Counted from the first letter of the stretch, positions 1 through 63,522 are shown. The stretch: 64,000 nucleotides of DNA from a virus (IMGVR_UViG_3300009605_006302), one strand, 5' to 3'. Numbers and translations are program-made. The notes: a model not told the origin generated them from the sequence alone.

Positions 1-609
1 TCCTGTGGAAGAAGAGGCAAATAAAACACCATATTCGCCGGCCGGCGAATTAACAAAATATCCATTAGATCCACTAGTATCAGTTAACTTGATTCTTTTA
101 GTAAAGACGGCGCCGGCTTGTTCGTATGCACTGTTTACTCCCAGTTCCAAAGAAAAAGATCCTTTCTTGATTTCATCTTTAACAAGAAGTCTTGAAAAAT
201 TAAGGAAAAAACATTCGAGTGATTTAGTTCCACCAGTTAAATTGCCATCCTTATCAAACTGTCTAATGGAACCAGTCTGATCATATCCGGCCAGCACTTG
301 AGCCATTTGATTGTAAATGTTGATCTTTTTAGTATTCTGTGAATTAGAGGATGCAGATAAAGCGGAATCAGAAGCATAGCCGGTAGTAATATCAAAAATA
401 TGATTTGCCGATGAGCTTAAATACGGATAATCATAAACCGATTCAAACATACCATGTGAATAAGTTTTAATATTTGGTTCACTACCTAATGCGCCGGCTG
501 CGCCATATGTCCCAGAAACAATTGTTCCAGTAATTGGAATAGCTTCGTTTAAAAGCGTTCTAGTTGAAGTCGTATCATTATTTGTAAGTGTTTTATATAC
601 TGTTGCCAT
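1..609 (-). CDS. Putative virion structural protein (partial; runs off the left edge; missing from the ORF track)
   Basis: ATG at 609 preceded by AAGGA. The frame reads MATVYKTLTNNDTTSTRTLLNEAIPITGTIVSGTYG... and stays open to position 1. It is S/T/G-rich like the neighbouring tail proteins. Confidence 0.75.
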   Translation of the reverse strand, partial: MATVYKTLTNNDTTSTRTLLNEAIPITGTIVSGTYGAAGALGSEPNIKTYSHGMFESVYDYPYLSSSANHIFDITTGYASDSALSASSNSQNTKKINIYNQMAQVLAGYDQTGSIRQFDKDGNLTGGTKSLECFFLNFSRLLVKDEIKKGSFSLELGVNSAYEQAGAVFTKRIKLTDTSGSNGYFVNSPAGEYGVLFASSSTG

Positions 610-624
610 GTTCTTATCCTTTTA

Positions 625-1566
625 TTATACTTGCTTCACAAACCTTAATGGAACGTCAACTCTGTATCCAGTAGTAGCACCAGTTACTCTTACAACAGAA
701 TCCAAATATCGATAAGTTCCTGCGGCTGCACTGGTGCCAGTAATAGTTAAACCACTTGCACCCAGTTTATCAAACAAATAATTATTAGTGCTTAATTCGA
801 TTGAAGCCTTAATTGTAAATCGCAATCTAGTGCCCCGGGGTCCAGCGATTACTTGTGGCAATTCTGTACCATCTTGGTTCGGCGGCGAAAGATCTCGAAT
901 AAAAGTCGGTTTATCAGTATTATAAGATAAATAATAGCTGGCTATATTATCGTCATCGATAAAAGAAACTTTTGCAGAGGTTTTACCGTTTCTGTCCCAT
1001 ATAGAACCGAACCGATTATCTATTTCAATAATATATTGAGTTTCAATTAAATCTCCATCAAGCCGTTCGTTGGCTGAAATTTCTGTTGTATTTAGTCCTT
1101 GATCAAGTCTTACCCAGTGATCGGTATCTTTTGAAACGGAAAAACCATTTATAACGCCGTCGACAACAGCTCTCGACAGTGCCTTTTCCGTATCAACATC
1201 AACCGCAACAAGAAAAGTGTTTTGGCTGGGCGCGGTTGTGTGCATTTTAGAAGAAGCTCTTAATGTATTTAATACAATTTCCGGTAGATACATGAGAGAA
1301 GTTCTCGGAATTGAAATCAGCTTCGAATTCATTAAACTAGTGTTGTTTGTAAAAGCTTCCAAAACAGGAGTTTGCAGAATGTCCAAATCGTAATATGCAG
1401 AACCGCTAGCGTGATTCTTATCATACGATCCATAATTAATTTCATCATCGCCTAAACAAAATTTAGCAATGCGAAAACTACCATCACCCCTGGCCAATCT
1501 CATTCTTCCCGTGTCTGTTAGCACTGCATCGAGAATTATATCACCAGAATTATCTAAAAAAGCCAT
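625..1566 (-). CDS. Putative tail/baseplate structural protein (tail-collar-fibre-like N-terminus)
   Basis: 313 aa with a GAGGGG SD. The N-terminal LTDTGRMRLARG..F.IAKFCLGDDEINY resembles the LT..G...LA..G....F.lGD start of tail-collar/fibre proteins. Located in the structural operon. Confidence 0.55.
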   Translation of the reverse strand: MAFLDNSGDIILDAVLTDTGRMRLARGDGSFRIAKFCLGDDEINYGSYDKNHASGSAYYDLDILQTPVLEAFTNNTSLMNSKLISIPRTSLMYLPEIVLNTLRASSKMHTTAPSQNTFLVAVDVDTEKALSRAVVDGVINGFSVSKDTDHWVRLDQGLNTTEISANERLDGDLIETQYIIEIDNRFGSIWDRNGKTSAKVSFIDDDNIASYYLSYNTDKPTFIRDLSPPNQDGTELPQVIAGPRGTRLRFTIKASIELSTNNYLFDKLGASGLTITGTSAAAGTYRYLDSVVRVTGATTGYRVDVPLRFVKQV

Positions 1567-1596
1567 GTTTACCCCTCTTCATAAAACGTATTATTG

Positions 1597-1604
1597 TAAA
1601 TAGT
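1597..1604 (-). promoter_or_regulatory. Putative late promoter motif ACTATTTA
   Basis: The + strand reads TAAATAGT in the intergenic gap about 30 nt upstream of the 1566 start. The same 8-mer sits upstream of four other genes. Confidence 0.5.
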
Positions 1605-1629
1605 GTCTTATTTCGTTTTACTTCTTGTA

Positions 1630-4293
1630 TTATTTTTCACCATATTGAGAATCGTCGACACATACTGTGCCGATGGGGCAATCATCGTCCGTTGTTTCAC
1701 TAAAATCCCCGGGGACACTCTTTTTGGATTTTTGTAGTGCAAAAGCTCCTGGATCAAAAAAAGCAGACGGCGCCGAGGTTCCAGCAATTGCGCCGGCAGC
1801 ATATTTAGTCATAAACCTATCATAATCATATGCATATTTAAACTTCACGTTCACATCAAACTTTCTTCCTGTGTTTTTAGATATAAACCTAAATTTAAAA
1901 TTTTTATCCCATACACTGCCTTCTTCAGTCAACCCTAAAACAATTTCATCTCTGCCTATTTTCGTAGCACTTTTTAAATTCCTGCCGGCATCTGTTTTAT
2001 CCATATCAATAATACGATGTGGAAAAGAAGGAATAATGTAAATGTTTTTATTTATAGTTTTTGTTGGAACTTTGTGACTCGGTTCTTTCAGTTCGGGTGT
2101 ATCCACTAATAAATAGACTGCTCCATCTTCTTCTACCATCTCCACTTCAAAAACTGGTGAAGGATAAGACAAATGACCATGTACGTCTGTCGTTCGAAAT
2201 GTATAATAATATTTTTTATTTGACTCAATGTCATCAACGTAAGATACTGCTGATAAATTAGTGCCATTAAATTCTGTAGGAATTTGTTTAATTATGTTAC
2301 CAGAAAAGTCTCTATAAGATTTGGGCATCTTTTCTAGTCGATATATTTCAAAAAGTCGCGGAGGATCATCTGAAGCATAGTTGATTGGATCGCCGCGTGA
2401 AACTTTTTGAATTTTTTCCATTTCACTTATCAGTGCCTCTTCTCCAGGTTCGATTACTTGTGGAACTAATTTATAATCACCCACATTTGCGTTTAAATTA
2501 AAAAGTATTCGATCACTCATTCCTCGATATGGAATAATATTAACATCGGGTGCCACCGGGGGCCTATCAAGAATTTTGTTGACGCCACTTTCAAAATAAG
2601 GAACTTTGACAAGTTTTAAATATGGTTCCAAAAAAACTTTGAATCGAGGTAGGTCATATATTATGGCCGGGTCGTCATACTTTCCTCTAAGAGTGTCGTC
2701 GAAAACATGTCCTGGTTCTTCTTTCTCATATCTATATTTTGTTCCAAAAACTAATCGATATGCATAAATCTTGTATCTATACTCAGTATTGTATTTAACC
2801 TGTGTGTCAATAAAATTACATATTCCCAATTCATCAGAATTTGGAATGAAAAAACTTTGAATTGGTTCTACAGATCCTCTTGTAAACTTATCTATTTGAT
2901 AAAAAACCGATTCCGAATAAGTGGTTTTGCCTTCTTCAAAAATTTCTTTGAGGTTTCTATTGTTTTGCCTTATTAACGTGCGTATTCGACCCAACAAAAC
3001 AATTTTTAACAAATTTGCTATTTGAGGCCGGCATTCATCTAAAATTTTGGTTTCATTGCACTTGTTTCTACCAAATACCACTGTATTCTTTAAACTTGAT
3101 TCCTCGGCTATCCCGCGCCACCATTCAGTTATATCCCACGTTTTATATGATTGGTTAGGGAGTATCTTTGAACCTAATAACCTTGTTCCACTTTTTCCTT
3201 TTTTTTCCGTTAAAAACTCACGTTGTTCAACAAATTTAATCTCGCCCCTTCCACTAGAAGCTTGTACGTGGTTAATAAGATTGGCACTTAGTTCCGCTTC
3301 TCTTAACATTCCAGCAGCCTGAGTGCCGGCGCCTGTAGAAAACTTTATATCCATGTGCATCGGAAATAGTTCTTTTTTAGCGCTAAACTTAGTTAAAAAA
3401 TCAACATCAACTTGAGAAAAAATAAAATTTCTGAATTTCTCATTAAGTTTTGCCATTTTTTGTGGGTCATTCTTTAGTTTGTCATAGCCACTCTGCCATG
3501 ATTTAAAATAATCGGCTATTTGAGTACTTCTTTCACCAACTTTTTCACCTTTTTCATTAAGTATATCTTTGTAAACACCAATAATATTACCCATAAGAGA
3601 TATATGCTTATTGTACCATGAATTATTTTCATCTAGATATCCACTTTCCTTTTCTGACAAAAAAGAATACAAACAGGGCAATAATTTTTCTTCCACGTTG
3701 TCTATCTTATTTTCATACCCATTGACATAAAAATTATATTCTGAATCAACATCGGCTACTAAAGTTAGAATATTACTAATTGCAAGATCTAGTGTTTCTT
3801 TGTATAAATACGGTACGCTGTATTCAAAAGGACAATCCTGCCAACTCTTCGAAGGGTTGGCAAGTTCAAGCTCATTATCAACGAACTCAAACCATTTTTC
3901 TAAATCGAACACCATGTCTGAGGTGTGCGCTTCTGCTCCTGTGTACCCAGGCGGGATACTTAATAAAAATCTGTGATTTTCTTTCGGTATTAGTTTTATA
4001 TATTGCGATATAACTGGAAACAAATCTCCCCCTTCTTCAATCGGTGGATCTCCATACTCAATTGAAAATGGTGAGTCTCCGGGAATATTATATCCAAAAA
4101 CGATATTATCATTATGAGATGTCCATAATTTTCCAGTATACCACCTTATTGGATCTATTTGATCCGGCGGGGGCCCCATGACCTCGCTGAAGCGGTGGGG
4201 GAGCATGAGTGTTGGCTCTCCACTGCTTTCGTCGAGCGTTGTGGTGGCGTGTAATCCAAAATCTACAGCTGTTCTTTTTTTCCCTATACTCAT
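1630..4293 (-). CDS. Large hypothetical protein, probably virion structural; FN3-like beta segments
   Basis: 887 aa ORF in the structural operon. Segments such as NTEYRYKIYAY and KKYYYTFRTTDVHGHLSYPSP are typical FN3-type strand ends. Confidence 0.5.
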   Translation of the reverse strand: MSIGKKRTAVDFGLHATTTLDESSGEPTLMLPHRFSEVMGPPPDQIDPIRWYTGKLWTSHNDNIVFGYNIPGDSPFSIEYGDPPIEEGGDLFPVISQYIKLIPKENHRFLLSIPPGYTGAEAHTSDMVFDLEKWFEFVDNELELANPSKSWQDCPFEYSVPYLYKETLDLAISNILTLVADVDSEYNFYVNGYENKIDNVEEKLLPCLYSFLSEKESGYLDENNSWYNKHISLMGNIIGVYKDILNEKGEKVGERSTQIADYFKSWQSGYDKLKNDPQKMAKLNEKFRNFIFSQVDVDFLTKFSAKKELFPMHMDIKFSTGAGTQAAGMLREAELSANLINHVQASSGRGEIKFVEQREFLTEKKGKSGTRLLGSKILPNQSYKTWDITEWWRGIAEESSLKNTVVFGRNKCNETKILDECRPQIANLLKIVLLGRIRTLIRQNNRNLKEIFEEGKTTYSESVFYQIDKFTRGSVEPIQSFFIPNSDELGICNFIDTQVKYNTEYRYKIYAYRLVFGTKYRYEKEEPGHVFDDTLRGKYDDPAIIYDLPRFKVFLEPYLKLVKVPYFESGVNKILDRPPVAPDVNIIPYRGMSDRILFNLNANVGDYKLVPQVIEPGEEALISEMEKIQKVSRGDPINYASDDPPRLFEIYRLEKMPKSYRDFSGNIIKQIPTEFNGTNLSAVSYVDDIESNKKYYYTFRTTDVHGHLSYPSPVFEVEMVEEDGAVYLLVDTPELKEPSHKVPTKTINKNIYIIPSFPHRIIDMDKTDAGRNLKSATKIGRDEIVLGLTEEGSVWDKNFKFRFISKNTGRKFDVNVKFKYAYDYDRFMTKYAAGAIAGTSAPSAFFDPGAFALQKSKKSVPGDFSETTDDDCPIGTVCVDDSQYGEK

Positions 4294-7200
4294 TAATATG
4301 TTCCCATTGATCCCATCGAGCCGGCTGAACCGCCACCGCCTAGGGCACCACCTGTTGTGCCACCGACACCTTCAGTTAAATCGCCAACAGATTGCGGGGC
4401 CGCGAACTCTTCAACTATTGGAAGTTCGTCAGAGCCTGGAGGTATGAGACGATCTCTTTCTCGTGTTGCTGTTCCTGCTTCTTCTAAAGCCTGAGTTTTT
4501 TGTATTATAAAATAGTTATCATACGATGGTATATCTAGACCCTCACCAGCCCTAACGCTTGGTAAGTTCTGATGTTCAAATCTCCTAAGCCTACAAAGAA
4601 TTTCTGTGTTTTTAAAATCTCTTAATTGTTGCATTGTAGCAGTTCGCCAAACTGGTCGTTTTATTAAAACCCCGTCCTCTGTAGACTTAACATATCCAGA
4701 CAAAAATTCAACCTTCTGCAACAACAAATAATTGAATATGAAAGCATTTTCAGTTGCGAGATTTGTTGATAAATTTTGAAAATTGTGATTCACTTTGTCA
4801 TTGTATCCAGCAGCGTCGGCAAGAATCGATTTAAGTTGCAGTGGCATAGCCTCAATAATCCGTTCGTTGATTGCTCTCGTGCGAGCCTTTTTCGGATCCG
4901 TCGCAACGCCGGCAAGCTCAAGAAGCTTCTCTATGGTAAACCTCTCTGCATTTCCTAGACGCTGTTGTGGATTTGGTATCGATTCACCTTGATCGCCAAT
5001 AAAAACCCGGGACATTGGTGCCGGCGGAATTGTCAACGCAAACCCGGAAACCAATTTTGCCAAAAATAAATTAGGATTTTGAGACTCGTTTGGATCCATT
5101 ATTTCTTCTTTATATGGTTTGGTTTGAACTTCTGCCGGCGCCGTCGCAGCCTTTAATACATCTCCGGTGTTTATAAACCTATCCTCTTCTTTATCTTTTT
5201 TTTCGTAAATTAATGATGGTTCAACCATGGTAAGATTAAAAGCTTCAAGAGTCTTCAATAAATTATATTTTATTTTTTGTTTGGCCGGCTTAAGTTTAGA
5301 AGTTGTTTTTGTTTCATACTTAGAATTATACAAACCTCCAGTGCTCTTATAGCTGAGAATTTTAGTGGCACACAGATCGTTAATCTCTTTATTCCATAAA
5401 TCAACTTCCTGATTATTAAAAGAATATTGTTTATTTCCCAAGACAGCAATCGACGGAGAGAGATGAATAGGCGTAGTAAGAATCATTGTGTTTAACGAGA
5501 CCACTGGTGTGTTGACGTCGCTCGTGAGAGATATGTTGTCATCAACGTTTTTATAATATTTTAACATTTCTGTATTTAATCTTTCTCTAAAAACATTGAG
5601 TCCAATGATCTCTAGTCCAGTAGCAGCAGCACGAGATGTAGCAAACTTGGAAGTGGACAGATAATCAAACCCTACGTTTTTTGGTGTATCACTGTCAAAT
5701 AATTCAGCAAAATATTTCTCTACTTTGAATGTTTTCATTGGTTTTGAGCCAACGTTGCTAGCTGTAGAGCTTCGATCTGAAGAACTGCTTACCATTCTAT
5801 TACTGGAGATGTTAATCAAGCTCTCTAGTTCTTGCAAAACGTTATTTACAAGCTTTGAGAATAACAACACTCCTCTAGGATCTTTTGCACTGGGATGAGT
5901 AACCCTCTTTACAAGACTTCTAGCCCCTCGAAATTGAGATATCAAATGCTTATTGCCTCTAACAAACAAGTCATCTACTATTTCAAAATATACTTGAATC
6001 GCCGGCACAACTTTGTCTTCCCATTCTTTTTCAAGATCCAGATTTGGTAAATTATAAACATTGGGTATGTTTAATATATTAATATATTCATCTAATCCGC
6101 CAGTCGAGAGAACTGGACTTCCAGATTTCTCTCTCAGCAATCTATTATAACGATTAACTAACAAATCGATTGATCGATCTTCAATTTCTAATTCAATTCC
6201 ATATTGAAAATGCCCATATGTCTGTTTTGAAACATCAAAATCAACACCAGTGAAGTGTCTGATGTGTTTATAGGCCCGGGGCTCGCGATTAACTACTTTC
6301 GTTTCTCTTATCGTTCCTAAATCAGTGCTAATAGTAGAAGGAAATACCGCAATTGTTTCTTCTGTTGTGTTTTTATCAAATATTTTTTCGCTAATAGAGG
6401 TCCCGCCGAGCTTATTTGTCCCGGGTAATGGAACAACTCTTCTTCTTTTTACCTTCAAAGACCTTATTATTGTATTGTTTACAATGTTGTTGAACATGCG
6501 TTCTGAAACGTTTGAGAAGTATTTTCCAAAAACCGTATTCTCCAATATCAATTTTCGAAAATCTAAACTAAAGAAAAATCTGGCGTTGCCAATGTTATCT
6601 CTCGTAACAAAGAAATCAGAAAAATAGGCAGAATTTCTCACAATATCCATATTGTCATTAGTTAATATATTTATTCGATGTGTGCGTGATAAAAACTTGT
6701 TTTCTGACAAATCTGGCAAAAGTTGTAAACCTTCAAGACGTTTGACTCTCCTAAAATCTTGTATAACAGTATCACCGCCACTGCCGGCTATTCCATGAAT
6801 TTCAAAATTATCAACAACTTTTCGATATTCAACACGACCAGACACTTTCCTAAGACTATCTGGCAAATCAATTCCAAAATCCGCATCAGTAAAATCATAA
6901 TAAGAAAAGATAAAGTATGTTAAATGCTCATGATTAGACGTATCATCTATATTAAATTGAAATTTAAAAGGTATATTCCAGGCTGTGTTTCCATCGGAAT
7001 CTATTGTCCTAAACTGAGTGCCTTCTCTTTCTTTTAAAATGTCAGTAATCGAAATTTCTTTAGTAGAAAAAAATCTTTGTTTTAGATTTAGAGTGCTCAA
7101 TTTTACATCAATTGGATTTGATGGTTTGTTTGAAACATTTGGCCGATAACCGGTCCTGCGTCCTATAGGTGCCTCTGCCATTGACAAGGCCGTCATAACA

Positions 7201-7570: not shown

Positions 7571-8434
7571 TTACTCCTCTCTATCCAACAGACTTACCAT
7601 ATTAGAAGAAATATCACCATCAGCCCATAAATCAAAAAAATATTCCACTTGATCGGTATCTATGGGAGGTGACGAGCTTAAATCCGGAGGATCTAAAAGA
7701 ATCCCATTTTTAACTACTGGTTTTTCTTCTGAAAAATACAAAGGAAAATCAATGTTTCCATTCTGATCGGTAACATAAACTTCAATGTCGAAATTATCCT
7801 TAGTTAGAGGCACGTTTTCTTCTTTTATCGTTAACAACAAATAATCTTCTTTCACATCTAAATATGTTCCATCTTCAAAATCGTTTGATCCTTCTTCATC
7901 GGGGATTATATTTTCGTCCGAACTCTTTGCGGAAATATAAAAAGTAACGTCTTTTAAATTAATTTGTGGAATTTTTTGTGTAGAATAAATCTGATCGCCG
8001 GCACCACTTATCGTTGTCGTTGAACCCGAAATTGATCCCGCAGCAAATCTTATATTAAATGCAGGTGCCTTATCTCCTATCAAATATGAATTTCCCAGCG
8101 GTGCAGCAGTAGTATAGTGCTTCTCTGGCGTTTGTTGTATCTTTTCTTTATATTCAGTAAAATTTGTTCGCTGCAGCACATTTAACTCTTCAAGTTGATC
8201 AACACTGTGAAAGAGATATTGTGTTTTGCTGCGAGGAGTTTCATCAAAAATTCTATCTTCAATATTGTTTTGTGTTTCAAGTACACTTCCTGAAGCATAT
8301 CTCTGATCATATATTATATCATCATCATAAAAAGCATAATAAACTGGTTTAAACTTGCCTTGCGAAATCAAATATTTACCATATTGCGTTAATTGAAGAT
8401 CAATAACATCTTCTTTTTCATTGAAAAAAATCAT
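7571..8434 (-). CDS. Putative structural protein sharing an N-terminal motif with 625..1566
   Basis: 287 aa. DLQLTQYGKYLISQGKFKPVYYAFYDDDIIY aligns by eye with DAVLTDTGRMRLARGDGSFRIAKFCLGDDEINY. Confidence 0.55.
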   Translation of the reverse strand: MIFFNEKEDVIDLQLTQYGKYLISQGKFKPVYYAFYDDDIIYDQRYASGSVLETQNNIEDRIFDETPRSKTQYLFHSVDQLEELNVLQRTNFTEYKEKIQQTPEKHYTTAAPLGNSYLIGDKAPAFNIRFAAGSISGSTTTISGAGDQIYSTQKIPQINLKDVTFYISAKSSDENIIPDEEGSNDFEDGTYLDVKEDYLLLTIKEENVPLTKDNFDIEVYVTDQNGNIDFPLYFSEEKPVVKNGILLDPPDLSSSPPIDTDQVEYFFDLWADGDISSNMVSLLDREE

Positions 8435-11400
8435 TTAGAATACCCTCGACTAAAAGTATCAATAGCTCTGATTATGGCTTTTTTACCACCGGATTGAGCA
8501 AATTTTTCAGATGACAGTGTAACAGAAGTTGTCGTCCCTGGCCGGGCCAATATTACTTCTGTTGTCTGTGGTTGTAGCGGTGAAATCTGCAATGGAGTAG
8601 CACTTCCGATTGATACATCTGTTTCCATCTTAACCAATTCAACCAATGAAAAGAAATCATATGGCCAATTATAACTATAAATAGAATCATGATCTCTCGA
8701 TCCTTCAGTGTTACCATATCTAGAAAACGATTGACGTTTTTCGTGCCAAACAGATTTTCTAATTTTGTTAAAATAATTCTTTTCCGCTCTTTGTTTCACT
8801 TTAAATACCTTCCAACGAAGTTCATCAGGAACTTCATCTTCAAATTTAAAAAATTCTTTTTCTAACATTTGATGTTGAATCGAAACGGTGTTCGCCTTAA
8901 AAGATGTGCCAATGTCTGGTGGTAGATTCTGCCACATATCAGTTAAATCTTTTCTCGTTAGCTTGTGTTCAAATTCAAAAATATACATAACGAAAGGATC
9001 AATTCCTGATTTTCCACCATATCTTGCTTCTCCCGATCGCGAAGTTGTGTCAAAAGTTAAAAAGTCCATCTCCGGAGGAAATATATATTTTGTCATAGCA
9101 TCGACCATGTTTACAATTGTATCTCCAACTTCTATATCCGATTCATAATCCACAGACATCTTTAATTTCAGTTTAGCGGCTGCAAATTGTTCTTTTGAAA
9201 TTTTAAAAAACTTACGTTCTCCATTCTTTTCAATATACGGCACCGCCACTACCGCCTCTCGAACTGTAAAAGATTCGCCGGCGGTGCCAAGTCGAATTGG
9301 GGTTTTCGCAAATCCAACCAAATCTGCCAAAGATCCAGTCAGTGTTACATTAGTTAATTCATTCTTGTCGAGATCCTGCACTTCTAAATATATTCCTTGT
9401 TGAGCCGTTGGTTCGGAGCCATATTGATGCCACATTCCCCGAGATACAGAGCCAGAACCAGATGCCGGCAAAGTAACACTAACATTTGAAAAATCCAATA
9501 TCGGTGTTTCCCACTTAGGCTGGATTGACCAAATGTTTGGTGTATTTTCATCTTGCAGAACCTCTTTTGGCCTTCCCGTCAGTGCATCAAAAACTGTACT
9601 ATCAAGCTGTGTCACTACATCAAAATTAATTGACGCGGATATGTGCATTCTTGATCCACTAGCAGGAGATGGAGAGGTAACAAACTGTGTTCCAATTCTA
9701 TAATAGGAAGCAGATAATTGAGAAACGATCTCATTTAAATAATAGCGCCTGGTATCAGTTGGCTTAAAAGTTAACTCAACTTCTGAATATCCATCATAAT
9801 AAGGTGGAGTAAATGGTTCGTAGCTTTCTTGACGATGTATACCGTATGCATGTGTTGGTGGACCAAAAGCAGACGGTCTGTCATACATAGTCATAGTCGG
9901 GTTTGTCAGTTGAGAACCAGAAGACCAATCAAAAAATACAGCCGGAAGAGAATCCAAAATTTGTTTCTTTCGCGATAACTTACCAGAACGAAGAACAACC
10001 CTCATTTTATATATTTTTGACGCGTCGGCATTAAAATGTTTTGGATCATTATCCGGATATGATACTAATGTAGTCACGTTGTTGTTATTCAGGTATAAAT
10101 TAATACTTTCTGCCAAGAAATTATTCATTGCCAAACGGTATAGCGAATCTCCGTTTCCATTCCATTTTGCGATTGAGTCCAGTGAAGCAGACCGATGTGG
10201 TTCCATATCTTGTAATGGAACAGTTAAATAATTCTCAGGTTCTATTAGTGCCTCAAACGGTATTCTGACGTCAAAACTTGAACTAATTCTAGCACTACTT
10301 GTAAGAGATCGCAAGTCTAAATCAGGTTTTAAAGAAGCAGCCGGTTGTGGAAAAAACGGCTTAGTTGAATCACAACTACCCAAACCTCCAGTTATATTAA
10401 ATGAACTGGTCATTTGAGGCCAATCGACTGCGATTCCAGATTTAATTGAATTATAGAGAACACCAGGCCCAAATAATGGCGCAATGAAAGTACGCCACGA
10501 AGGCTGTGTTCCAAAAGTATAAGGTATTGTACCACCAAACTCGTTCACATTATCAGCATAAGACTGCGAAAACATCGTTGCCAGCTGTAATGTTCTGTCG
10601 GCCGGATAAAAGCCGTCATACGGCAAAAACTTCATCAAAGCTTTACAACGAAGAGTTAGTGTCTTATCTTTCTCAAAAGGTTTGTGATCTTCTTCTATTA
10701 CATCAAAATACTTCAAGAAATCGGAATGACTATATGTTACACAAAAATCATCATTTGCACTTGACGTTATAGATGCTCCCTCTAAAGTCAAAAACCCCGA
10801 ATTGGCAGCCAAAAAGTTTTCACTCTTTTCGTTCACATAATAGTTCATGTGTTCACTTATACGAAATTCCGGAACAATCGAGTAATCCTTTCCAATTCCT
10901 CGCATATTTTCTTGATAATGGCCATATGAATCATAAAACGGTGATTTTCCAGACTGAGTGCCGGCTTCCCATAAAGTATCGCCGGCAAAATAACCAAGTT
11001 CTTGACCAGTTACAGAATTATATTCAGGCGTTCTTCTAGCATAAATGGGGCCGGCTGGGCAGGAAAGAAACCTCTTCATACAATTTGTGTTTGGTGTGTC
11101 ATTTGTGTCTAACAAAGTTTGATATCGAGCAAGAGGAGTTGAAAGGAGAGAACTGCTACCATACAAGTATCCCAAAGGATATCCTCTTCCTACGTTAGTA
11201 TAGGGTACTTCATTTATCCAAAGAACGCCGGAGCCGCGAGGGTTATTACGTGCTACTTCATTAATACAATAACCATTGGAACCAGCAATGATATCCACTT
11301 GATTGAATCTAAACCATGCATCCAAACCTTCAGGGCCGTGATGAAAAACCCCGCCCGAACCAGTGACAGATTCTAGAAAACTTGCTGTAGCATGATAATA

Positions 11401-29562: not shown

Positions 29563-29581
29563 TATATCTCTCCTTTGTTTT

Positions 29582-33851: not shown

Positions 33852-34093
33852 TTGTATTCTACCTTCTTTAACCTTTTCTTTTCTGCGGCAACCTCTGTTT
33901 TAGTCTCTTCGATATGTTTATCGACAAGTTTGCCGGCGCGTTCTTTCTCGGAGAACACAAAGGGCATCGAAGGAACACGTTTTAAAGTTCCTTCCGACTT
34001 ACACTCTTTACAGTCGGTTAGCTTTTCTTTGATTGAATGAACCGTTTGATATGATTTGTTGCACTTCTCACACAAATAAACATATCTAGGCAT
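33848..34093 (-). CDS. FmdB-family zinc-ribbon protein
   Basis: MPRYVYLCEKC...DCKECKSEGTLKRVPS, the typical MP.Y.Y.C..C...C..C pattern. Confidence 0.85.
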   Translation of the reverse strand: MPRYVYLCEKCNKSYQTVHSIKEKLTDCKECKSEGTLKRVPSMPFVFSEKERAGKLVDKHIEETKTEVAAEKKRLKKVEYK

Positions 34094-38325: not shown

Positions 38326-38379
38326 TCCAATCCACTAATTGTTCCACCCATTTGTGTATTTTATAAATCTCACGAGATT

Positions 38380-41862: not shown

Positions 41863-41944
41863 TGCGATTATCTATCATATAATAACACACATGAAGGCAG
41901 TTTTTAATGCTTTTAATTTCTCTATCATACTTGGCTGCACCCCC

Positions 41945-43560: not shown

Positions 43561-43567
43561 TTTTCAC

Positions 43568-44275: not shown

Positions 44276-44282
44276 AATTCTA

Positions 44283-54074: not shown

Positions 54075-55412
54075 TTATAGTAATTTAGCTGCAAGAGACG
54101 CAACTTTTGAGCGTTCGCCTTTCTGCAAAGTTATGTGGCCGGCCAAAGCCTCATTTTTGAACTTTTCTACTGCATAAGTGAGACCGTTGGTGGTTTCATT
54201 GATATAAGTATTGTCGATTTGTTCAATATCGCCAGTCAAAATAATCTTTGTGTTTTCACCCACTCTTGTTATTATAGTCTTTAATTCGTGAGTTGTTAAA
54301 TTTTGTGCTTCATCAATCATAATAAAAGCGTTCGATATAGAGCGGCCTCTAATGTAGGTTATTGCCTCCATCTCTATTATACCATCTTTCATGTAACTTT
54401 CCAAGGTTAATTTGTCATTTCCCATTAAATATTGCAAATTATCTTGAATTGGCAGCAGCCATGGCATCATTTTGTCTTCCATTGATCCAGGCAAAAAACC
54501 GATGTCTCTCCCAACGGGCTGTATTGGCCGAGATATGACCATTTTCTTATATAGAGGCTCTTGTAGTCCTCCTTTCCTTCCACGCTGTTCTAGGGTCTGT
54601 GAGAGGCCCGCAGCGATGGCACAGAGGGTCTTACCGCTGCCGGCGCGGCCGACGAGGGTGATAATCTTAATTTCCGGATCCATCAGCAGATCAAAAGCAA
54701 ATGTTTGTTCTTTATTTCGTGGCTTTATTCCCCAAATCCCTGATTTAAACTCGGGAACCTTATAGAGAGGGCTTTCATAACTCTCAAATCTCGCGAGGGC
54801 AGATTTTTTCTCGTTAGAGTTCGAAACTAACATAACATACTCATGAGCATGCAACACAATCTCATCTTTATCTAGAAATATTTCTTCTTTTTCATAAAAT
54901 CTATCAATGATCTCTTCATCGATCAAGTGAGTCGAAAATCCGGTAAATATTTCAGTTCTGTCTTTTACAACTTGTTCTGTTCTATAATCTTCACACAACA
55001 AACCAAGTGCATCACATTTAACTCTCATATTAATGTCACGAGAGACAACAATGATCTTCTTATTGGGGTTATTTTGCTTTTCCGTTAAAGCTGTGATAAT
55101 AATTTGAGTATCTGAATTTTCTATATCCAATCCAGGTGGACATAATAGAGGATCGTAACCTCTTACGAATAACAGGCCTTTTCCTTTTTCGATTCGAACA
55201 CCCTTCTGAAGACTGCCCTTTATACGCAAGTTATCAAGGATACGAATCGCACCTCTGGCGTGGGCACCAACAGTGTCCTGTCGTTTCTTGTTATTGTCGA
55301 TTTCCTCTAAAACTTTTAAAGGAACAAGAATATCGTTTCTACCAAAAGAGAAAATCGAACTGCGATCTGTTAAGATAGCGCTAGTGTCTAGCAAATAGGT
55401 CTTTTTCTTCAT
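54075..55412 (-). CDS. phoH: PIN-PhoH (PhoH2-type) protein
   Basis: N-terminal PIN domain (LLDTSAIL, VLEEID, D..I, VSRDINMRVK). C-terminal PhoH ATPase (GRAGSGKT, RGRSI, IDEAQN, GDIEQID). The start is 55412 (ATG) or 55421 (GTG). Confidence 0.92.
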   Translation of the reverse strand: MKKKTYLLDTSAILTDRSSIFSFGRNDILVPLKVLEEIDNNKKRQDTVGAHARGAIRILDNLRIKGSLQKGVRIEKGKGLLFVRGYDPLLCPPGLDIENSDTQIIITALTEKQNNPNKKIIVVSRDINMRVKCDALGLLCEDYRTEQVVKDRTEIFTGFSTHLIDEEIIDRFYEKEEIFLDKDEIVLHAHEYVMLVSNSNEKKSALARFESYESPLYKVPEFKSGIWGIKPRNKEQTFAFDLLMDPEIKIITLVGRAGSGKTLCAIAAGLSQTLEQRGRKGGLQEPLYKKMVISRPIQPVGRDIGFLPGSMEDKMMPWLLPIQDNLQYLMGNDKLTLESYMKDGIIEMEAITYIRGRSISNAFIMIDEAQNLTTHELKTIITRVGENTKIILTGDIEQIDNTYINETTNGLTYAVEKFKNEALAGHITLQKGERSKVASLAAKLL

Positions 55413-55726: not shown

Positions 55727-56442
55727 AGCGCCCTTAACATATTTGCTCTTTGTTGTCTGTGATTGCTTTCGGGTCGTTGTGCTACGTAAAGATCCAACGT
55801 TTTTTCTGGATCTTCTCTCAAAATACGTCTAAATCCACTAACACCGGTAGAATTAGCAATTGCAAGTGCCCAAGATAACCTTTCTGATGGCCAACCAGCA
55901 TCTCTGGCATAGTATGCTGCAGCTAATACTCTGTCTCTCCACTCCAGCAATTGATAACCTGCTCCATAAGGGTATATATGTAGCGTTAGATCGACTAAGT
56001 TGACCCATTGACGGGTGTAGTATGGACAAGAGCCGGCGGCTTGTATGACGCTGCTAGCGTCCCATGGGGACCACTCTAAAATACCCTCCGGAGGTTGAAA
56101 ATGGAAGAGTCCATGAGCGCCACAATCTGTCCGGACAATATCATAGGGTCTTTTGCCAATTCGATCGGGCGCAGCTATAATTTGTATAGCTTCAAGCTCA
56201 AATCTTCTGAGGCGTGTGACTCGCGAGTCGAAATCGTGAGAATTTCCCATAAATTCAATATATTGTTCTAAATCCATATAACAAAATTCGAATTCAGCTG
56301 GACAATAATCATAATTTATGGGCAAACACGAAGGATAACTCATCAAATATTCGAATTCGTGTATTTCAGTGTTAGTAATTGAAGCGAGAGAAATATTGGA
56401 GCTGCACAAAACAATTAAAGCAATTAAATTAAATAATTTCAT
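55723..56442 (-). CDS. Secreted lysozyme-like / lytic-transglycosylase-like protein
   Basis: Signal peptide MKLFNLIALIVLCSSNISLA. GAHGLFHFQP resembles the SLT GAxGLxQ motif, and AAAYY...ALAIANS.G resembles ALAAYNAG. Confidence 0.45.
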   Translation of the reverse strand: MKLFNLIALIVLCSSNISLASITNTEIHEFEYLMSYPSCLPINYDYCPAEFEFCYMDLEQYIEFMGNSHDFDSRVTRLRRFELEAIQIIAAPDRIGKRPYDIVRTDCGAHGLFHFQPPEGILEWSPWDASSVIQAAGSCPYYTRQWVNLVDLTLHIYPYGAGYQLLEWRDRVLAAAYYARDAGWPSERLSWALAIANSTGVSGFRRILREDPEKTLDLYVAQRPESNHRQQRANMLRAL

Positions 56443-57396: not shown

Positions 57397-58548
57397 TTAT
57401 CTGATTTTTAAAAACCTTTTAAGCTCTTCTAGACGTTTTTCGGGTGCAGCGAGGCCGCCAATCATCGTATAAGCCGTCAATTTCTCTCTTTTGGAGTCTT
57501 CGTAGATGCCACGATGAATAATTGCTCCATCTGTCAAAGATCCGAGCGTGTCAAAGCCATATTCGATGTAATCCATCAATCCAGCGACCTCTTCATACAT
57601 CGTAGTACCTCCAACAACGATTGAAGCAGCTGCTGTGGCTGTTTTTAGGTCAAATCCTCCGGCTAAAAGCGTTTTTTCGAGGTTTGCCTTCAATGCGTTG
57701 GCAATAGAGGTCTCGTGATCGACCTCCCTGACTGTTGTAACACCCATGATCATGCACCCCTGGCTCTTCATGACCGAGTCATAGTCCATAGGGTCAAAGG
57801 ACGTATAGTCGCTATTTTGGGCACATAGGACGTTAAATACGTGAAACAGGCCGGCAACTGTGTTGTTTAGTGTCGGCCAGAACTTCTTGACGGTCAAAGA
57901 TGGGTATAATTTCTTGATCTTGTCATTATCAACCATAATAAGCGGTGCAAAATCACCATTTGCAGCCCGAACACACAGTTCTGATACCTTATTGAAGGCA
58001 TTTTTGGCCACAATAGACGATGCACACTCACCATTTGTCGGCAAAGACACAATAACACCCACTCTTTCGCTGGCATCTTCTCTTCCGACGTATGTAAAGT
58101 AGCGTTTTGCAATATCAACTAGTGCATTTACGCTTCCGCCGCCTGTACCGCCGGCCGCGCCGACACAAACAAGGATTCGATCGATGTTTTCACCGAAAAT
58201 TTCCCTTAATTTGTTAAAAATCTCTTGACTTCTGCCTTCAAAAGCCTCTCTGCCTCTTTCCTGATTCTTGCCGGCGCCTTGTCCACTAAAATAGTCCACA
58301 AAAAACTTGTGTTCTTCTGGAAGTTCCAATAAATTAAGGTCAGATTGCGCTGTGTTGAACGCAATAGTCTTCTTATAGCCGAGATCATAGAAAGCTTTGG
58401 CAATTCTACCTCCTCCTTGGCCAGATCCAATGACAGCATAAGTCAAAGCACCTCCGGATTCGTCTTCGACACCGTTTTTTTGAGTTTGTTCCTCTAAATT
58501 TGGGTCAAGATCTTCAATATCTAATGTTGGAATGTCTAATTCAATCAT
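57397..58548 (-). CDS. Tubulin/FtsZ-superfamily GTPase (TubZ/PhuZ-like)
   Basis: The true start is the ATG at 58548 (SD GAGGAG); the track's extension runs through the tmRNA. Motifs GSGQGGGRIA, FNTA, GQGAGKN, GAAGGTGGG (signature loop) and SFDPMDY (T7-loop DxxD). 383 aa. Confidence 0.9.
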   Translation of the reverse strand: MIELDIPTLDIEDLDPNLEEQTQKNGVEDESGGALTYAVIGSGQGGGRIAKAFYDLGYKKTIAFNTAQSDLNLLELPEEHKFFVDYFSGQGAGKNQERGREAFEGRSQEIFNKLREIFGENIDRILVCVGAAGGTGGGSVNALVDIAKRYFTYVGREDASERVGVIVSLPTNGECASSIVAKNAFNKVSELCVRAANGDFAPLIMVDNDKIKKLYPSLTVKKFWPTLNNTVAGLFHVFNVLCAQNSDYTSFDPMDYDSVMKSQGCMIMGVTTVREVDHETSIANALKANLEKTLLAGGFDLKTATAAASIVVGGTTMYEEVAGLMDYIEYGFDTLGSLTDGAIIHRGIYEDSKREKLTAYTMIGGLAAPEKRLEELKRFLKIR

Positions 58549-58569
58549 AATTATAATTTTCTCCTCTAG

Positions 58570-58931: not shown

Positions 58932-58951
58932 TTGTTAAAATAGAATCCGAA

Positions 58952-59564: not shown

Positions 59565-59565
59565 A

Positions 59566-60369: not shown

Positions 60370-62696
60370 TGTTGTGTCTCCATTATACTACTTCTCACTA
60401 AATAGTTTAATACTTCGCGAATAAGTGTATCTTGTTTCTTTTTCTTTTTCCTAGGACCTGGGCCGACTGAACCTTCAACTGCGCCGGCAGCCATGGCTGA
60501 AACTTCATCCAAGTCACCCTCTTCTTCCATAGAATAGGCAATTGCTGCAGCCTGTTCTTTACTTTTTCCCTCGTCATCGATCAAGTGAGCAATTTTTTTT
60601 GATACCCTCTTTTGACCGGTTTTAGAAACCTTAGTTTTCTTTCTTTCTTCATCGAGAATCTCTTCAACCAAAGAATATAGTAGGGAAATAGTTTTTTTTT
60701 CTTCTTGGATAGGCTTAATACTAAATATGCTTTTGATCCATTCTGGATCAACTTCTGGTGGAATATAAGAACTTATATCTTTTCCCAATAAAGCTTCACG
60801 AAAATCAGTGGCACTAATAGCACCTTCGCTGGTCTGAAAACAGCCGGCGACGTGATCTGAGATTATGACACCTTCTCTTGCATATTTTTGAAAGGTACCC
60901 GGGTTTCCAAAACGCTCAAAATCAGGTTTACCTTTCTTGTCTGGTTTATTGCTGCAGCCTAAAATAATCTCATCTCCAGGTTGTGCAAAATCTAATTCAT
61001 CATTTTTATTCTCAATGAATTCAACTACTTGACCTATAGGTGAATTAGATTCAGATGGTTTATCATAAATAATAACATTGTTCAAAGCCGATGAATCAAT
61101 GTAAATATTCCAAATCTTTCTAGAGTCGTCAAAAGTAACTTCAGCTTCGTTGTCTCTTCCTACTCCTCTAGGAAGTGGAGAAATAAGAACATATACGTAT
61201 CCATCTGAACCGACCAAATCACTGTAGTGGCGAACCATTTCAAAGTGGCCGATATGAGGAGGCTTAAATGCTCCAGGGACGAGTACTATTACTCTTCCTT
61301 CACCGAAACGTGGTTCGACAATCGGCTCGTCTTCTAGAGCTTCTTCCAAGCCTTCTTTTTTTGGTGTTCGATCATATTTACCCAAACCCAACATTTGATT
61401 GACAGGAGCAAATTGGCCAGTGAACTTATAAGTTTCACCCTCATAATCAAATACGAGACCTTCAATGACTGTCGTTATTTTTTCTAATGCTGACTGTACT
61501 GCTTCATCACTCAACACATCGCCTACGTCTTCGCCGCCGTGAATCTTGGCCAATGAAGTTTTTAGAAGTGTCAAGCTGCCTTCATCAGCCAATACTTTTG
61601 AATCTTTTGCTTTCTCGCCAACCTTTGTGCGAAGCCTTGATAGAGAATCTTCAGCCTGTAGAGTATAACCACTTATAAAGCCTTCCAAAACCCTTGTCGC
61701 AAATCGATGATTGACCATTATTAATGGATTCATAGCGCGATCTTTGATATCTTTCATGGCTGAACGAGTTCTCAAAAATTCATTAATAAAGTCTTTGGCC
61801 TCTTCGCCGGGAATTGACTCCAAAACACTTTTTATCTCTATTGTCTTTCTTGGCATGCCGGTAGTTGCAAAATGCATAAGCGCCAGCATCAGTCGATCAT
61901 ATGTTTCTTCAGAATATCCAGAACCAAGTTTTTCTTGAAGAAGGAACTTCAATCTGTTTTCCAAATATTCTCCAACGGTTTTTGCAGAACCTTGGATAGT
62001 TCGCAGTTCATTTACTGCGTTATGATAAGCTTCTTTCTTTTCAATAAATTCTGTAAAATCAACAATAGCATTAACTTTCGTTGTTGGGACATCGGGGGAA
62101 TCGATTTGCAGTTCCTGTAATCGAGCTTCTAATGCTGCCGACCTTTCTTCAGCTAATTTCTTTGCTCCTCGATAATCAGCTTGATCTTCACTTAGTGAAA
62201 TCAGTTTGCCATCAACCAACTTTTTGTGACCAACTCGATGAATCAGCAACACTTGTGTATCATAGGGAATAACATTTTCACTCTCAGGATCCATTACTTC
62301 TGCATTATAGAAAAGTCTCTCTCCGGATGGAGTATAGAAAAACTCTGGCGATAGCAAATGAGCAATCTTCTCAAAATTAATCATCGCTGCATAAAATGCA
62401 TTGACCACATTAATTGGAGTTGGATTCTTGCCGGCGGCAATACGATCAGTTGTAAAGTAACTCTTCAGTGTTTCTTTATCGAGACCACCCTCATTTGCGT
62501 GGGCGTTGTTTCGAATTGCCAAAGCTTGTCCGGTTCGATGATCATAGCTTATAGAGATATTCTGACCGTCGGTTTTTTCCGTTATTTTAATATTCGGAAA
62601 CCCTTTTGATGCAATCTGGAATATATCCCTCATTTGATCAAAACCTAGATCAAGATTCTCATAGGGATGTAGCATGTGGCCACCAACAGCGCCCAT
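60366..62696 (-). CDS. Fusion of an ATP-dependent ligase-like nucleotidyltransferase and a HIGH-family nucleotidyltransferase
   Basis: TEKTDGQN (motif I KxDG), FYNAEV (III), IEGLVF (IV) and YKFTG (V), then VPGAFKPPHIGH (HxGH) and SATDFR. Confidence 0.7.
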   Translation of the reverse strand: MGAVGGHMLHPYENLDLGFDQMRDIFQIASKGFPNIKITEKTDGQNISISYDHRTGQALAIRNNAHANEGGLDKETLKSYFTTDRIAAGKNPTPINVVNAFYAAMINFEKIAHLLSPEFFYTPSGERLFYNAEVMDPESENVIPYDTQVLLIHRVGHKKLVDGKLISLSEDQADYRGAKKLAEERSAALEARLQELQIDSPDVPTTKVNAIVDFTEFIEKKEAYHNAVNELRTIQGSAKTVGEYLENRLKFLLQEKLGSGYSEETYDRLMLALMHFATTGMPRKTIEIKSVLESIPGEEAKDFINEFLRTRSAMKDIKDRAMNPLIMVNHRFATRVLEGFISGYTLQAEDSLSRLRTKVGEKAKDSKVLADEGSLTLLKTSLAKIHGGEDVGDVLSDEAVQSALEKITTVIEGLVFDYEGETYKFTGQFAPVNQMLGLGKYDRTPKKEGLEEALEDEPIVEPRFGEGRVIVLVPGAFKPPHIGHFEMVRHYSDLVGSDGYVYVLISPLPRGVGRDNEAEVTFDDSRKIWNIYIDSSALNNVIIYDKPSESNSPIGQVVEFIENKNDELDFAQPGDEIILGCSNKPDKKGKPDFERFGNPGTFQKYAREGVIISDHVAGCFQTSEGAISATDFREALLGKDISSYIPPEVDPEWIKSIFSIKPIQEEKKTISLLYSLVEEILDEERKKTKVSKTGQKRVSKKIAHLIDDEGKSKEQAAAIAYSMEEEGDLDEVSAMAAGAVEGSVGPGPRKKKKKQDTLIREVLNYLVRSSIMETQQ
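60399..60406 (-). promoter_or_regulatory. Putative late promoter motif ACTATTTA
   Basis: TAAATAGT on the + strand, 30 nt upstream of the 60369 start. Confidence 0.45.
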
Positions 62697-62951
62697 TTAC
62701 TTCTCCTTGCTTTCTTCTAGAACTTTTACTTGTTCTTCGAGAGTAACAACTCTTTTGTTTAGGCCACGAACACTTCTTCTAATATTGCGAAGATGCTCTC
62801 TGGCAACTTTCATTCTTCGTTGCCCGGTTATGTTTGTAGTTATGTTGTTAAGAGCTTCTTCTAGTGATTGGATATAACTGAAAACATCTGGTGCTTCGTA
62901 TGCCTCGCCTATTAAAAATCTGCGAGTTATTTTGCTATAGTTAATTGGCAT
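62697..62951 (-). CDS. Small coiled-coil hypothetical protein
   Basis: 84 aa with a heptad-like C-terminus, abutting both neighbours. Confidence 0.65.
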   Translation of the reverse strand: MPINYSKITRRFLIGEAYEAPDVFSYIQSLEEALNNITTNITGQRRMKVAREHLRNIRRSVRGLNKRVVTLEEQVKVLEESKEK

Positions 62952-62952
62952 A

Positions 62953-63522
62953 TCATTTCTTGAATTTGAATCTTTTTAGAAGAGCTTCGTGAAGTTGGTT
63001 ACTGTACCATTCTTTATCAGATTCTTCTTCCGAAACCTCGGCCTCTTCTAAAGTCTCTTCTTCTTCTTCGATTTGTTCAACTTTCTCTTTGTTTTCATTC
63101 ATTAAACTTCTCCCTTTTTTATAATTATCTTCCCAATCTCTAAAAAGCATTATATTGCCTGTTCTGTATGCGTCACCTTCCATTTCTCTCATATGCTGAT
63201 CCTTTTGGGCATATCCAGGATTAATGTTTGTTTGATTATCAAAGTTGCCGGCACAATTCTGATTATGGTGAACCAATTCGTGTGCCAGCGACCGCAGTAT
63301 ATCTTTTGGATGCCTCTGATCAACATAAATAGTAACTCTCTGAGTTTGCGGATCATAATTGCCAGTAGGCGCAAAGACTTTTCCAGCATTGTTCACATTG
63401 GATTCAAAAACAATTGTGACTGGTTTAGAAAATTTAAATCGATCGTGTGCAAATTCATAAAGATTGTTTGCTAAATCATCTAAACCTTCATAGTTTGCGT
63501 TGTTGTGTATTTTACATGTCAT
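62953..63522 (-). CDS. Zincin-like metallopeptidase domain protein
   Basis: RHPKDILRSLAHELVHHNQ (HExxH), EGDAY third ligand, and an acidic C-terminal tail. Confidence 0.72.
   Translation of the reverse strand: MTCKIHNNANYEGLDDLANNLYEFAHDRFKFSKPVTIVFESNVNNAGKVFAPTGNYDPQTQRVTIYVDQRHPKDILRSLAHELVHHNQNCAGNFDNQTNINPGYAQKDQHMREMEGDAYRTGNIMLFRDWEDNYKKGRSLMNENKEKVEQIEEEEETLEEAEVSEEESDKEWYSNQLHEALLKRFKFKK

Follow-up and report, generated by a model that had tools for sequence, protein, structure and literature searches.

The phage contig IMGVR_UViG_3300009605_006302 raises the question of why a single palindrome, GCCGGC, should recur about once per kilobase throughout AT-rich viral DNA. The stretch analyzed here, referred to as the window, comprises 64 kb (bases 2404–66403) of this linear 75,777 bp IMG/VR viral contig, which has a CheckV completeness of ∼42% and is labelled G000 in the comparisons below. 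The window is 38.05% GC, the contig (75.8 kb) is 96% coding, and nearly every gene lies on the minus strand. Among the gene products of the contig are a baseplate wedge protein, structural proteins of huge size, an amidase-type endolysin, a PD-(D/E)XK nuclease, PIN-PhoH and ClpP; its relatives, which are syntenic IMG/VR contigs with complete members of 185–193 kb, carry a T4-type major capsid protein (gp23), and no psbA was found in them. Together with the glycan genes, these features bear out the phage origin presumed in an initial annotation of the window, and the contig belongs to the marine T4-superfamily group. Our best reading is that the GCCGGC pattern is neither a set of conserved functional sites nor a codon artefact. 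Tentatively, and at a little short of an even chance, we interpret GCCGGC as a highly iterated palindrome (HIP) of the kind known from cyanobacteria, written by a lineage-specific, genome-wide pressure on the DNA itself.

An exact count gives 67 copies of GCCGGC in the window and 87 in the whole contig, where the density is 1.15 per kb. The initial annotation had estimated ∼65 copies, about one per kb, and all 22 of the coordinates it gave are correct; its expectation of two to three copies from base composition is also sound (2.9 under a Bernoulli model), although its figure of ∼36% for GC content was too low. More elaborate models predict 3.7 (Markov-1), 8.4 (Markov-2), 24.9 (Markov-3) and 39.4 (Markov-4) copies in the window, the last two values being too high because the motif itself supplies most of the 4- and 5-mers on which they are built. 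For the contig, the Bernoulli and Markov-1 expectations are 3.6 and 4.6, against the 87 observed. Our main null was a within-gene shuffle of synonymous codons, which keeps both amino acids and codon usage. Coding sequence in the contig contains 86 copies, as against 11.7±3.4 in 300 such shuffles and a maximum of 23 in any of them, an excess of ∼8-fold (z=22). GCCGGC ranks first among all 4096 hexamers in this comparison, and the next words are its own overlapping shifts. The remaining all-GC palindromes are much rarer in the contig (CCCGGG 19, GGCGCC 17, CGGCCG 16) and are jointly enriched 2.2-fold. The excess thus persists under the Markov and codon-shuffled comparisons that the initial annotation had proposed, and the equal enrichment of other S-rich hexamers that it had named as a possible refutation is not seen. 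We regard the excess of GCCGGC as confirmed.

A simple explanation is that GCC-GGC is a favored codon pair, through codon-pair or translational preference or through clustering of GC-rich codons. There is some basis for this, in that unrelated AT-rich Bacteroidota spell 14–28% of their Ala-Gly dipeptides as GCC-GGC, a generic 1.5- to 3-fold excess, and a mild elevation is seen in every class of all-GC control words. Because a null that preserves dicodons necessarily retains every in-frame site, it is no test of the excess, and we relied instead on natural controls: the reversed dipeptide, occupancy in frame 2, relatives that avoid the word, and unrelated AT-rich bacteria. The contig spells 62 of its 125 Ala-Gly dipeptides GCC-GGC, where codon usage predicts 7.1, and all other cells of the 4×4 Ala-Gly codon table hold 0–15 each. 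The reversed dipeptide, Gly-Ala, is written GGC-GCC in only 13 of 94 cases. Occupancy, defined as the share of positions with amino acids permitting GCCGGC that actually carry it, is 50% in frame 0 (GCC|GGC) and 44% in the Pro-Ala contexts of frame 2 (20 of 45, nnG|CCG|GCn), and 6% in frame 1, where the rare Arg codon CGG is needed and four to five copies are found. Because so little of the contig is non-coding, non-coding copies were examined in G410, a complete relative that also accumulates the word; six lie in 11 kb of its non-coding DNA, a density equal to that in coding DNA. In relatives that avoid the word while encoding homologous proteins, Ala-Gly is written as GCCGGC in 0 of 223 (G003) and 5 of 124 (G005) cases. 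A preference for the codon pair is therefore highly improbable as the main cause, and indeed effectively refuted; it accounts only for a 2- to 3-fold baseline, although that Bacteroidota baseline will be useful for judging future claims about GCCGGC. In the AT-rich Bacteroidota samples (G066, G086, G114, G080 and G192; loci L060–L101) we also observed that the reversed control word ACGGCCGT is nearly absent in many.

The excess therefore acts at the nucleotide level, is specific to the word, and is bound to no single frame, the last point having been made already in the initial annotation. The unit is the 6-mer, and the annotation's remark that the flanks are not fixed also holds, since flanking bases follow codon-position composition; a longer candidate unit, TGCCGGCA, was rejected, being accounted for by that composition. 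Occupancy is uniform between genes (chi-square p=0.49), with a trend only towards lower values in the accessory glycan cluster (7 of 22 versus 31 of 54 in core genes, p=0.075). No even spacing of sites was seen: the coefficient of variation is 1.05 (P=0.63), like a random draw from the eligible positions, in a contig that at 76 kb is too short to reveal the 10–90 kb periods reported for HIP1, the classical cyanobacterial HIP.

The identical codon-preserving null was applied to ∼90 related loci and to several long records, and the overall palindrome z-score across the family spans about −16 to +9. Accumulating genomes include the contig itself (84–86 copies of GCCGGC against 10–12 expected); G001, with 30 GCCGGC against 5.9 and GGCGCC in only 1 of 68 Gly-Ala dipeptides; G002, with 54 GGCGCC against 20 and 41 GCCGGC against 21.6; and the complete G410, with 83 GCCGGC against 19.6, 77 GGCGCC against 20 and 43 CGGCCG against 11.9, the copies being evenly spread along its genome. 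At the other extreme, the avoiders G003 and G005 are joined by the complete G412, which has two copies of GCCGGC and none of GGCGCC in 193 kb. A tree of a shared large structural protein places the contig, L105 and G001 in a fully supported accumulating clade and L121, L124 and L129 in another, while two large clades consist of avoiders alone; the tree calls for about five switches of regime. Accumulating clades elsewhere in the family raise GCCGGC together with GGCGCC. Palindrome spectra correlate within clades (rho 0.57 for G000 and G001, 0.59 for G003 and G005), but less so between G000 and G002 (0.27), and the correlation from one accumulating clade to the next is no higher than that of accumulators with avoiders. 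These clade-wise spectra show that the pressure is heritable and specific to particular words and lineages. Accumulation and avoidance of one word thus alternate between clades of one phage family.

The word also stands out by its symmetry. The palindromic NCCGGN words are all raised (observed/expected: ACCGGT 26/13, CCCGGG 18/4.4, GCCGGC 86/11.8, TCCGGA 25/13.6), whereas no such rise is seen for the non-palindromic ones. Leaving out GCCGGC does not abolish the excess of perfect palindromes (498 8-mers versus 371, z=7.9), and among 8-mers whose halves each contain one A/T, the palindromes show a 2.75-fold enrichment while mirror (a half, h, plus its reverse), complement and direct-repeat controls stay at ∼1.0. 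This general enrichment rises with GC content, the mirror and complement controls remaining flat; CG-centered palindromes are raised most, whereas non-palindromic NNCGNN words are slightly depleted. The GCCGGC spike of ∼8-fold thus sits atop a general excess of dyad-symmetric words of ∼1.2- to 2.7-fold. In addition, five palindromes (CTCGAG, GAGCTC, GTGCAC, CACGTG and CGTACG) have no copies in the contig, against five to nine expected of each, and GAGCTC and CACGTG are likewise missing from G410 and G412, both of them complete relatives; these zero-copy words represent ordinary restriction avoidance, and fit a restriction pressure shared across the family. We also note a second iterated palindrome, the octamer GCTGCAGC, with 10 copies in the window against 0.34 under Markov-2, and 15 in the coding sequence of the contig against 3.6 under the synonymous shuffle. 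The family members L134 (record G411, 185.6 kb), L143 and L151, which are 33–34% GC, show a strong general palindrome excess (z +4 to +5.6) without enrichment of GCCGGC, indicating that the general layer can exist without the spike.

Such a layer could arise from a generic mutational process that perfects palindromes, in which short-range template switching by the replisome or by recombination favors stable GC-rich ends, and host restriction then removes some words while GCCGGC survives. The template switching known so far operates on looped inverted repeats of greater length, and a gap-free 6-mer is a stretch for it. Nevertheless, quasipalindrome mutagenesis by template switching is established (PMC7202029) and is stimulated by methyltransferase-DNA complexes (PMC6357072); it resembles the present case in perfecting imperfect inverted repeats, giving a general palindrome excess without function of the sites, although it is described for longer looped repeats. 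The general enrichment of perfect palindromes, with its dependence on GC content and its flat controls, is as this process would have it, as is the finding that accumulators still have no copies of CTCGAG, GAGCTC, CACGTG and others; moreover G410 has raised numbers of GCTAGC, which is the second product that GCTGGC would be expected to yield. What the process leaves unexplained is the specificity. GCCGGC exceeds by far the joint enrichment of the other all-GC palindromes (8- versus 2.2-fold), G001 raises GCCGGC but not GGCGCC, G002 prefers GGCGCC, and the spectra of accumulators are no closer to each other than to those of avoiders. Nor is there a significant excess of multi-nucleotide changes at motif sites in the closely related genomes G410 and G416 (6 of 19 versus 23%, p=0.42). 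We conclude that template-switch bias explains the general palindrome layer and not the word and lineage specificity, and consider a generic process quite unlikely as the source of the GCCGGC spike.

Are particular copies preserved? The nearest IMG/VR relatives of the contig are 66–83% identical to it in amino acids. Between G000 and G001, both enriched and ∼50% identical in protein sequence, none of 16 aligned G000 sites and none of nine G001 sites are shared, and conserved Ala-Gly positions are filled in G000 at ∼50%, just as the remaining positions are. Comparison with L105 (66–70% protein identity) likewise gives 0 of 16 and 0 of 4 shared sites; L105 spells the retained Ala-Gly dipeptides with other codons, and about half of the G000 sites lie at differing residues. 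With L003 and L004 (about 75–83% nucleotide identity) about two of nine sites are shared, and some of the differences change amino acids (Gly-Gly-Gly-Val versus Gly-Ala-Gly-Val; Ala-Ala versus Ala-Gly). As the collection holds no closer relative of G000, turnover was measured in another accumulating clade, using the pair G410 and G416 (96.8% identical over 41.6 kb) with G415 (∼80%) as outgroup. These two share 14 GCCGGC sites, with four found only in G410 and three only in G416; for GGCGCC the numbers are 12, three and four, and for CGGCCG six, three and two. Sites of these top words are conserved in 32 of 42 cases (0.76), whereas codon-position- and base-specific substitution rates predict 31.3 (0.745). 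A cut of the loss rate to 0.275-fold, as would follow from a fixation bias strong enough for a ∼9-fold excess, would give 0.93 conserved and is rejected against the codon-position baseline (P=0.0005); even a halved loss rate is disfavored (P=0.035, or P=0.009 for nine enriched palindromes). In-frame motif sites are conserved at 0.83, not significantly different from matched in-frame controls (0.68–0.90), while non-palindromic all-GC hexamers are conserved at only 0.56. A safe statement is that there is no detectable excess conservation of sites, and strong site-level purifying selection is excluded. The initial annotation had also suggested a recombination, packaging or protein-binding signal, and for a position-specific signal this is not supported, as positions are not conserved and spacing is random. 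Gains roughly equal losses; every clearly polarized loss is a C>T or G>A change, and the gains run from A/T to G/C, opposing the AT-biased mutation spectrum. Since copies decay about as fast as comparable sequence and yet stay many-fold above expectation, we infer that the rate at which they are created must be raised.

A different possibility is selection for the number of copies regardless of their position, for example for binding of a dimeric phage or host protein in DNA condensation or genome organization, as a decoy titrating a host defence protein, or for fast recruitment of a protective host methyltransferase. The density of about one per kb, similar across genes, is agreeable to this, as is a symmetric word of the sort preferred by dimeric proteins; amino acid changes are tolerated in making sites, and sister clades purge GCCGGC, so that host systems evidently 'see' the word. 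The conservation test, with control baselines ranging from 0.56 to 0.90, is also compatible with weak selection. Against these points, the close pair shows no excess conservation and rejects the strongly reduced loss rate, spacing is random, several palindromes rise together with the identity of the words varying by lineage, and no candidate binding protein was found. On balance we view selection for copy number as rather unlikely.

Our tentative interpretation, a HIP-type word written by pressure on the DNA, would work as follows. Near-cognate words would be converted to the perfect palindrome, mostly via synonymous third-position changes and in some cases with altered amino acids, while existing copies would decay through ordinary C>T mutation; the excess would then be kept up by raised site creation, through biased mutation or repair, and not by protection of particular sites. 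As only the palindromic NCCGGN words are raised, the agent presumably reads the full dyad, that is, the symmetric 6 bp word, much as a dimeric protein of the restriction-modification type would. The initial annotation had invoked a HIP-like element, and the word does behave as a highly iterated palindrome; the phage-encoded 5-methylcytosine (C5) methyltransferase or Vsr repair protein that it associated with this is, however, absent from both the contig and G410. No C5 methyltransferase (PF00145) and no Vsr is present in the contig (∼42% complete), and G410, a 100% complete accumulator, has no PF00145, no PF01555 (N4/N6 methyltransferases) and no Vsr. C5 methyltransferases are also lacking from five relatives and from four further accumulator fragments, and Vsr from three relatives other than G410, while C5 methyltransferases are present in two avoider relatives. 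With no recognizable cytosine methyltransferase or Vsr in the contig or G410, the agent would be either host-supplied, acting by methylation-linked biased repair of the type proposed by Elhai, or a phage protein of an unrecognized family.

Candidates for the agent were sought by gene content. Gene 39 (window 53096–53767) at first appeared accumulator-specific (three versus two genomes) and was rejected when homologues were found in strong avoiders. G410 has 105 genes without avoider homologues, of which almost none are common to other accumulators; the ten annotated ones (among them a thioesterase, a transglycosylase, a sigma factor, a pyridoxal phosphate enzyme, a domain of unknown function and unknowns) were set aside because none is recognizably DNA-modifying. 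The host was sought as well. The DegT-type sugar gene matches four phyla at ≤36% identity, and a census of 401 Bacteroidota gave no genome with a matching signature, the densest ones being simply GC-rich with ordinary counts. The Bacteroidota sample G066, which has a C5 methyltransferase, was considered as a host match and rejected: its 14 of 33 Ala-Gly spelled GCC-GGC in 20 kb fell to 57 of 203 in 140 kb, and its palindrome profile is uncorrelated with that of the phage.

Several observations count against a biased creation process. No agent was found, PF00145, PF01555 and Vsr all being absent from the contig and G410, and the gene-content comparison yielded no candidate. Mutation rates of T4 are reportedly independent of host mismatch repair, which weakens the case for a host-repair agent in a T4-type phage. 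Neither GCTGGC nor GCCAGC shows the clear deficit that repair of the very-short-patch type would leave (observed/expected for the deamination variants: GCTGGC 12/14.3, GCCAGC 10/9.2, GTCGGC 10/6.7, GCCGAC 16/8.6), one-step Ala-Gly neighbors are only mildly drained (ratio 0.40, versus 0.53 in avoiders), and both polarized losses of GCCGGC are at the inner C. Palindrome profiles of Bacteroidota are unrelated to that of the phage, and no bacterium among the 401 matches its signature. Finally, the turnover test was made on G410 and G416 and not on G000, with few sites and, given the broad range of control values above, an uncertain neutral baseline, and it is therefore compatible with moderate selection for site number.

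The closest parallels are the alternate HIPs of cyanobacteria, rCCGGy/GCCGGC in Oscillatoria PCC 10802 and GGCGCC in Calothrix PCC 7103 (Elhai 2015, PMC4390886). The words listed there are those found here, GCCGGC in the contig and GGCGCC in sister clades; in both settings the density is ∼1 per kb, copies are written into coding sequence, and the iterated word varies by lineage. In the account of Elhai (2015, PMC4390886), the genome that carries a HIP also encodes a methyltransferase directed at the word or its core, whereas here the genome is that of a virus, and neither the contig nor the complete accumulating relative has a cognate methyltransferase. Furthermore, only the fully palindromic form is raised here, not GCCGGT or ACCGGC, and sister lineages purge GCCGGC. 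HIP1 itself (GCGATCGC) is similarly a short GC-rich perfect palindrome, at least 15-fold over composition and lying inside genes in more than one frame, but it is an 8-mer, and its sites reportedly keep their positions from genome to genome and recur periodically (Xu, Lawrence and Durand 2018, PMC5861425), in contrast to the 6-mer of the phage with its non-conserved positions and random spacing. GCCGGC thus shares the features that define a HIP (type of word, fold excess, density, several frames and, in G410, non-coding presence), while the features proposed to explain HIPs, a cognate methyltransferase in the contig or in G410 and, within the limited power of the test, positional conservation, were not found here. 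We therefore file it as a variant of the HIPs and not as a member of the cyanobacterial system.

Two other known processes bear comparison. Bhagwat and McClelland 1992 reportedly found that very-short-patch repair by Dcm/Vsr shapes oligonucleotide abundance in E. coli. Such a site-specific repair bias could similarly raise the number of methylation sites without any function of single sites, but no C5 methyltransferase or Vsr was found in the contig or in G410, the T-variants are not clearly depleted, and the magnitude here is far larger. Restriction-site avoidance does act in the contig, on the five zero-copy words, and it dominates the sister clades, GCCGGC included (G003, G005 and G412); in the contig GCCGGC behaves in the opposite manner, being about 8- to 20-fold up. 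Searches of the full-text literature turned up no account of iterated palindromes in phages.

All copies in the window are listed below, and further features of the contig may be noted. The large accessory glycan cluster (window 34276–51044, minus strand), most of whose genes have no homologue in the relatives, is a nonulosonic-acid and glycosyltransferase cluster: it contains NeuB, a cytidylyltransferase, a DegT aminotransferase, several epimerases/dehydratases, a radical SAM enzyme, a UDP-glucose dehydrogenase and five glycosyltransferases. A TubZ/PhuZ-like tubulin gene (window 57397–58626, minus strand; Pfam Tubulin and TubZ-like_C) has no homologue in the four relatives compared. Between it and the next open reading frame (ORF) is a full-length transfer-messenger RNA (tmRNA; window 58567–58915, minus strand) with tag peptide ANDGIYDNSYALAA, called by ARAGORN and scoring 109 bits with Rfam RF00023. 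Because the listed GTG start of the tubulin gene overlaps the tmRNA by ∼60 nt, the true start is probably further in. ARAGORN also calls a similar tmRNA, with tag ANNNVAFDYALAA, in the complete relative G410 (L190:11938–12288), and the phage family thus carries its own tmRNA. The AN...YALAA tag looks proteobacterial, a possible clue to the host. No tRNA was found in the window. Two giant structural genes (window 8431–13929 and 13951–19026, minus strand; 1832 and 1691 aa) are separated by 21 nt, and in relatives (G001_35, G002_9, G003_112) one ORF of ∼3000–3500 aa matches the pair of them, suggesting that the gene is either split here or interrupted by one stop codon in this sequence. Outside the window (L001, contig 1192, 1468 and 1744), a gene at contig 685–1845 (minus strand) contains three GCCGGC copies at intervals of exactly 276 bp; this spacing suggests a structural protein built with 92-residue tandem repeats, each with its own GCCGGC.

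Table 1. Copies of GCCGGC in the window. No strand is given, the word being palindromic; Ala-Gly denotes frame 0 and Pro-Ala frame 2. Where noted, the last column gives the corresponding residues or codons in relatives L105 and L004.
Position	Reading	Remarks
37..42	Ala-Gly	gene on minus strand
41..46	frame 2, Ser-Pro-Ala	overlaps copy 37..42
112..117	Ala-Gly	
493..498	Ala-Gly	
1792..1797	Ala-Gly	
1984..1989	Ala-Gly	
3027..3032	frame 1, Cys-Arg-Pro	
3325..3330	Ala-Gly	
4320..4325	Ala-Gly	
4908..4913	Ala-Gly	
5020..5025	Pro-Ala	
5134..5139	Pro-Ala	
5284..5289	Pro-Ala	
6001..6006	Pro-Ala	
6783..6788	Ala-Gly	
7997..8002	Ala-Gly	
9277..9282	Ala-Gly	
9464..9469	Pro-Ala	
10960..10965	Ala-Gly	
10981..10986	Ala-Gly	
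11050..11055	Ala-Gly	
13739..13744	Pro-Ala	
14374..14379	Ala-Gly	L105: Cys-Gly
14500..14505	Ala-Gly	L105: Thr-Gly
14799..14804	frame 1, Gly-Arg-Gln	L105: His for Arg
15010..15015	Ala-Gly	L105: Ala-Asp
15313..15318	Ala-Gly	L105: Ala-Gly as GCA GGC
15665..15670	Pro-Ala	L105: CCA GCA
16081..16086	Ala-Gly	L105: GCT GGT
16624..16629	Ala-Gly	L105: Gly-Gly
17575..17580	Ala-Gly	L105: Ser-Ser
19791..19796	Ala-Gly	L004: Val-Asp; L105: GCT GGC
20079..20084	Ala-Gly	common to L004, not L105
20301..20306	Ala-Gly	common to L004; L105: GCG GGA
25064..25069	Ala-Gly	
25332..25337	Pro-Ala	
25841..25846	Ala-Gly	
27098..27103	Ala-Gly	
28043..28048	Ala-Gly	
28960..28965	frame 0 of ORF 28606–29643 (minus)	outside crude gene call
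29428..29433	frame 0 of ORF 28606–29643 (minus)	outside crude gene call
30107..30112	Ala-Gly	
30978..30983	Pro-Ala	
31844..31849	Ala-Gly	endolysin gene
32241..32246	Pro-Ala	
33396..33401	Pro-Ala	
33932..33937	Ala-Gly	
35359..35364	Pro-Ala	glycan cluster
35853..35858	Ala-Gly	glycan cluster
39279..39284	Ala-Gly	NeuB gene
39417..39422	Ala-Gly	NeuB gene
41598..41603	frame 1, Gly-Arg-His	radical SAM gene
42755..42760	Ala-Gly	
43114..43119	Ala-Gly	
46462..46467	Pro-Ala	
50515..50520	Pro-Ala	
52756..52761	Pro-Ala	PD-(D/E)XK nuclease gene
54138..54143	Ala-Gly	PIN-PhoH gene
54639..54644	Ala-Gly	PIN-PhoH gene
56032..56037	Ala-Gly	
57850..57855	Ala-Gly	tubulin-like gene
58150..58155	Ala-Gly	tubulin-like gene
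58270..58275	Ala-Gly	tubulin-like gene
60483..60488	Ala-Gly	
60843..60848	Ala-Gly	
62430..62435	Ala-Gly	
63247..63252	Ala-Gly	

Phages are textbook avoiders of palindromes, and here half of the available positions hold a restriction-type palindrome while sister lineages whose proteins are homologous hold none. A broader proposal, which we consider unlikely, is that marine T4-type phages fall into two opposed palindrome regimes, both heritable, with the accumulators carrying or exploiting an undescribed, methyltransferase-independent sequence-reading system that writes GCCGGC and GGCGCC by biased repair or templated mutation; if true, such palindrome writing would amount to a novel drive that shapes genomes, and it might be connected with escape from host defences. 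The cause of the cyanobacterial HIPs has been open for ∼30 years, large genomes and many methyltransferases clouding the picture there. This family of ∼190 kb phages may be a much smaller system for finding the agent, as it offers both regimes, complete genomes, an accumulator without a detectable cytosine methyltransferase, and fast turnover of sites. If hosts share the signature, it could further be used to assign uncultured phages to the bacteria they infect.

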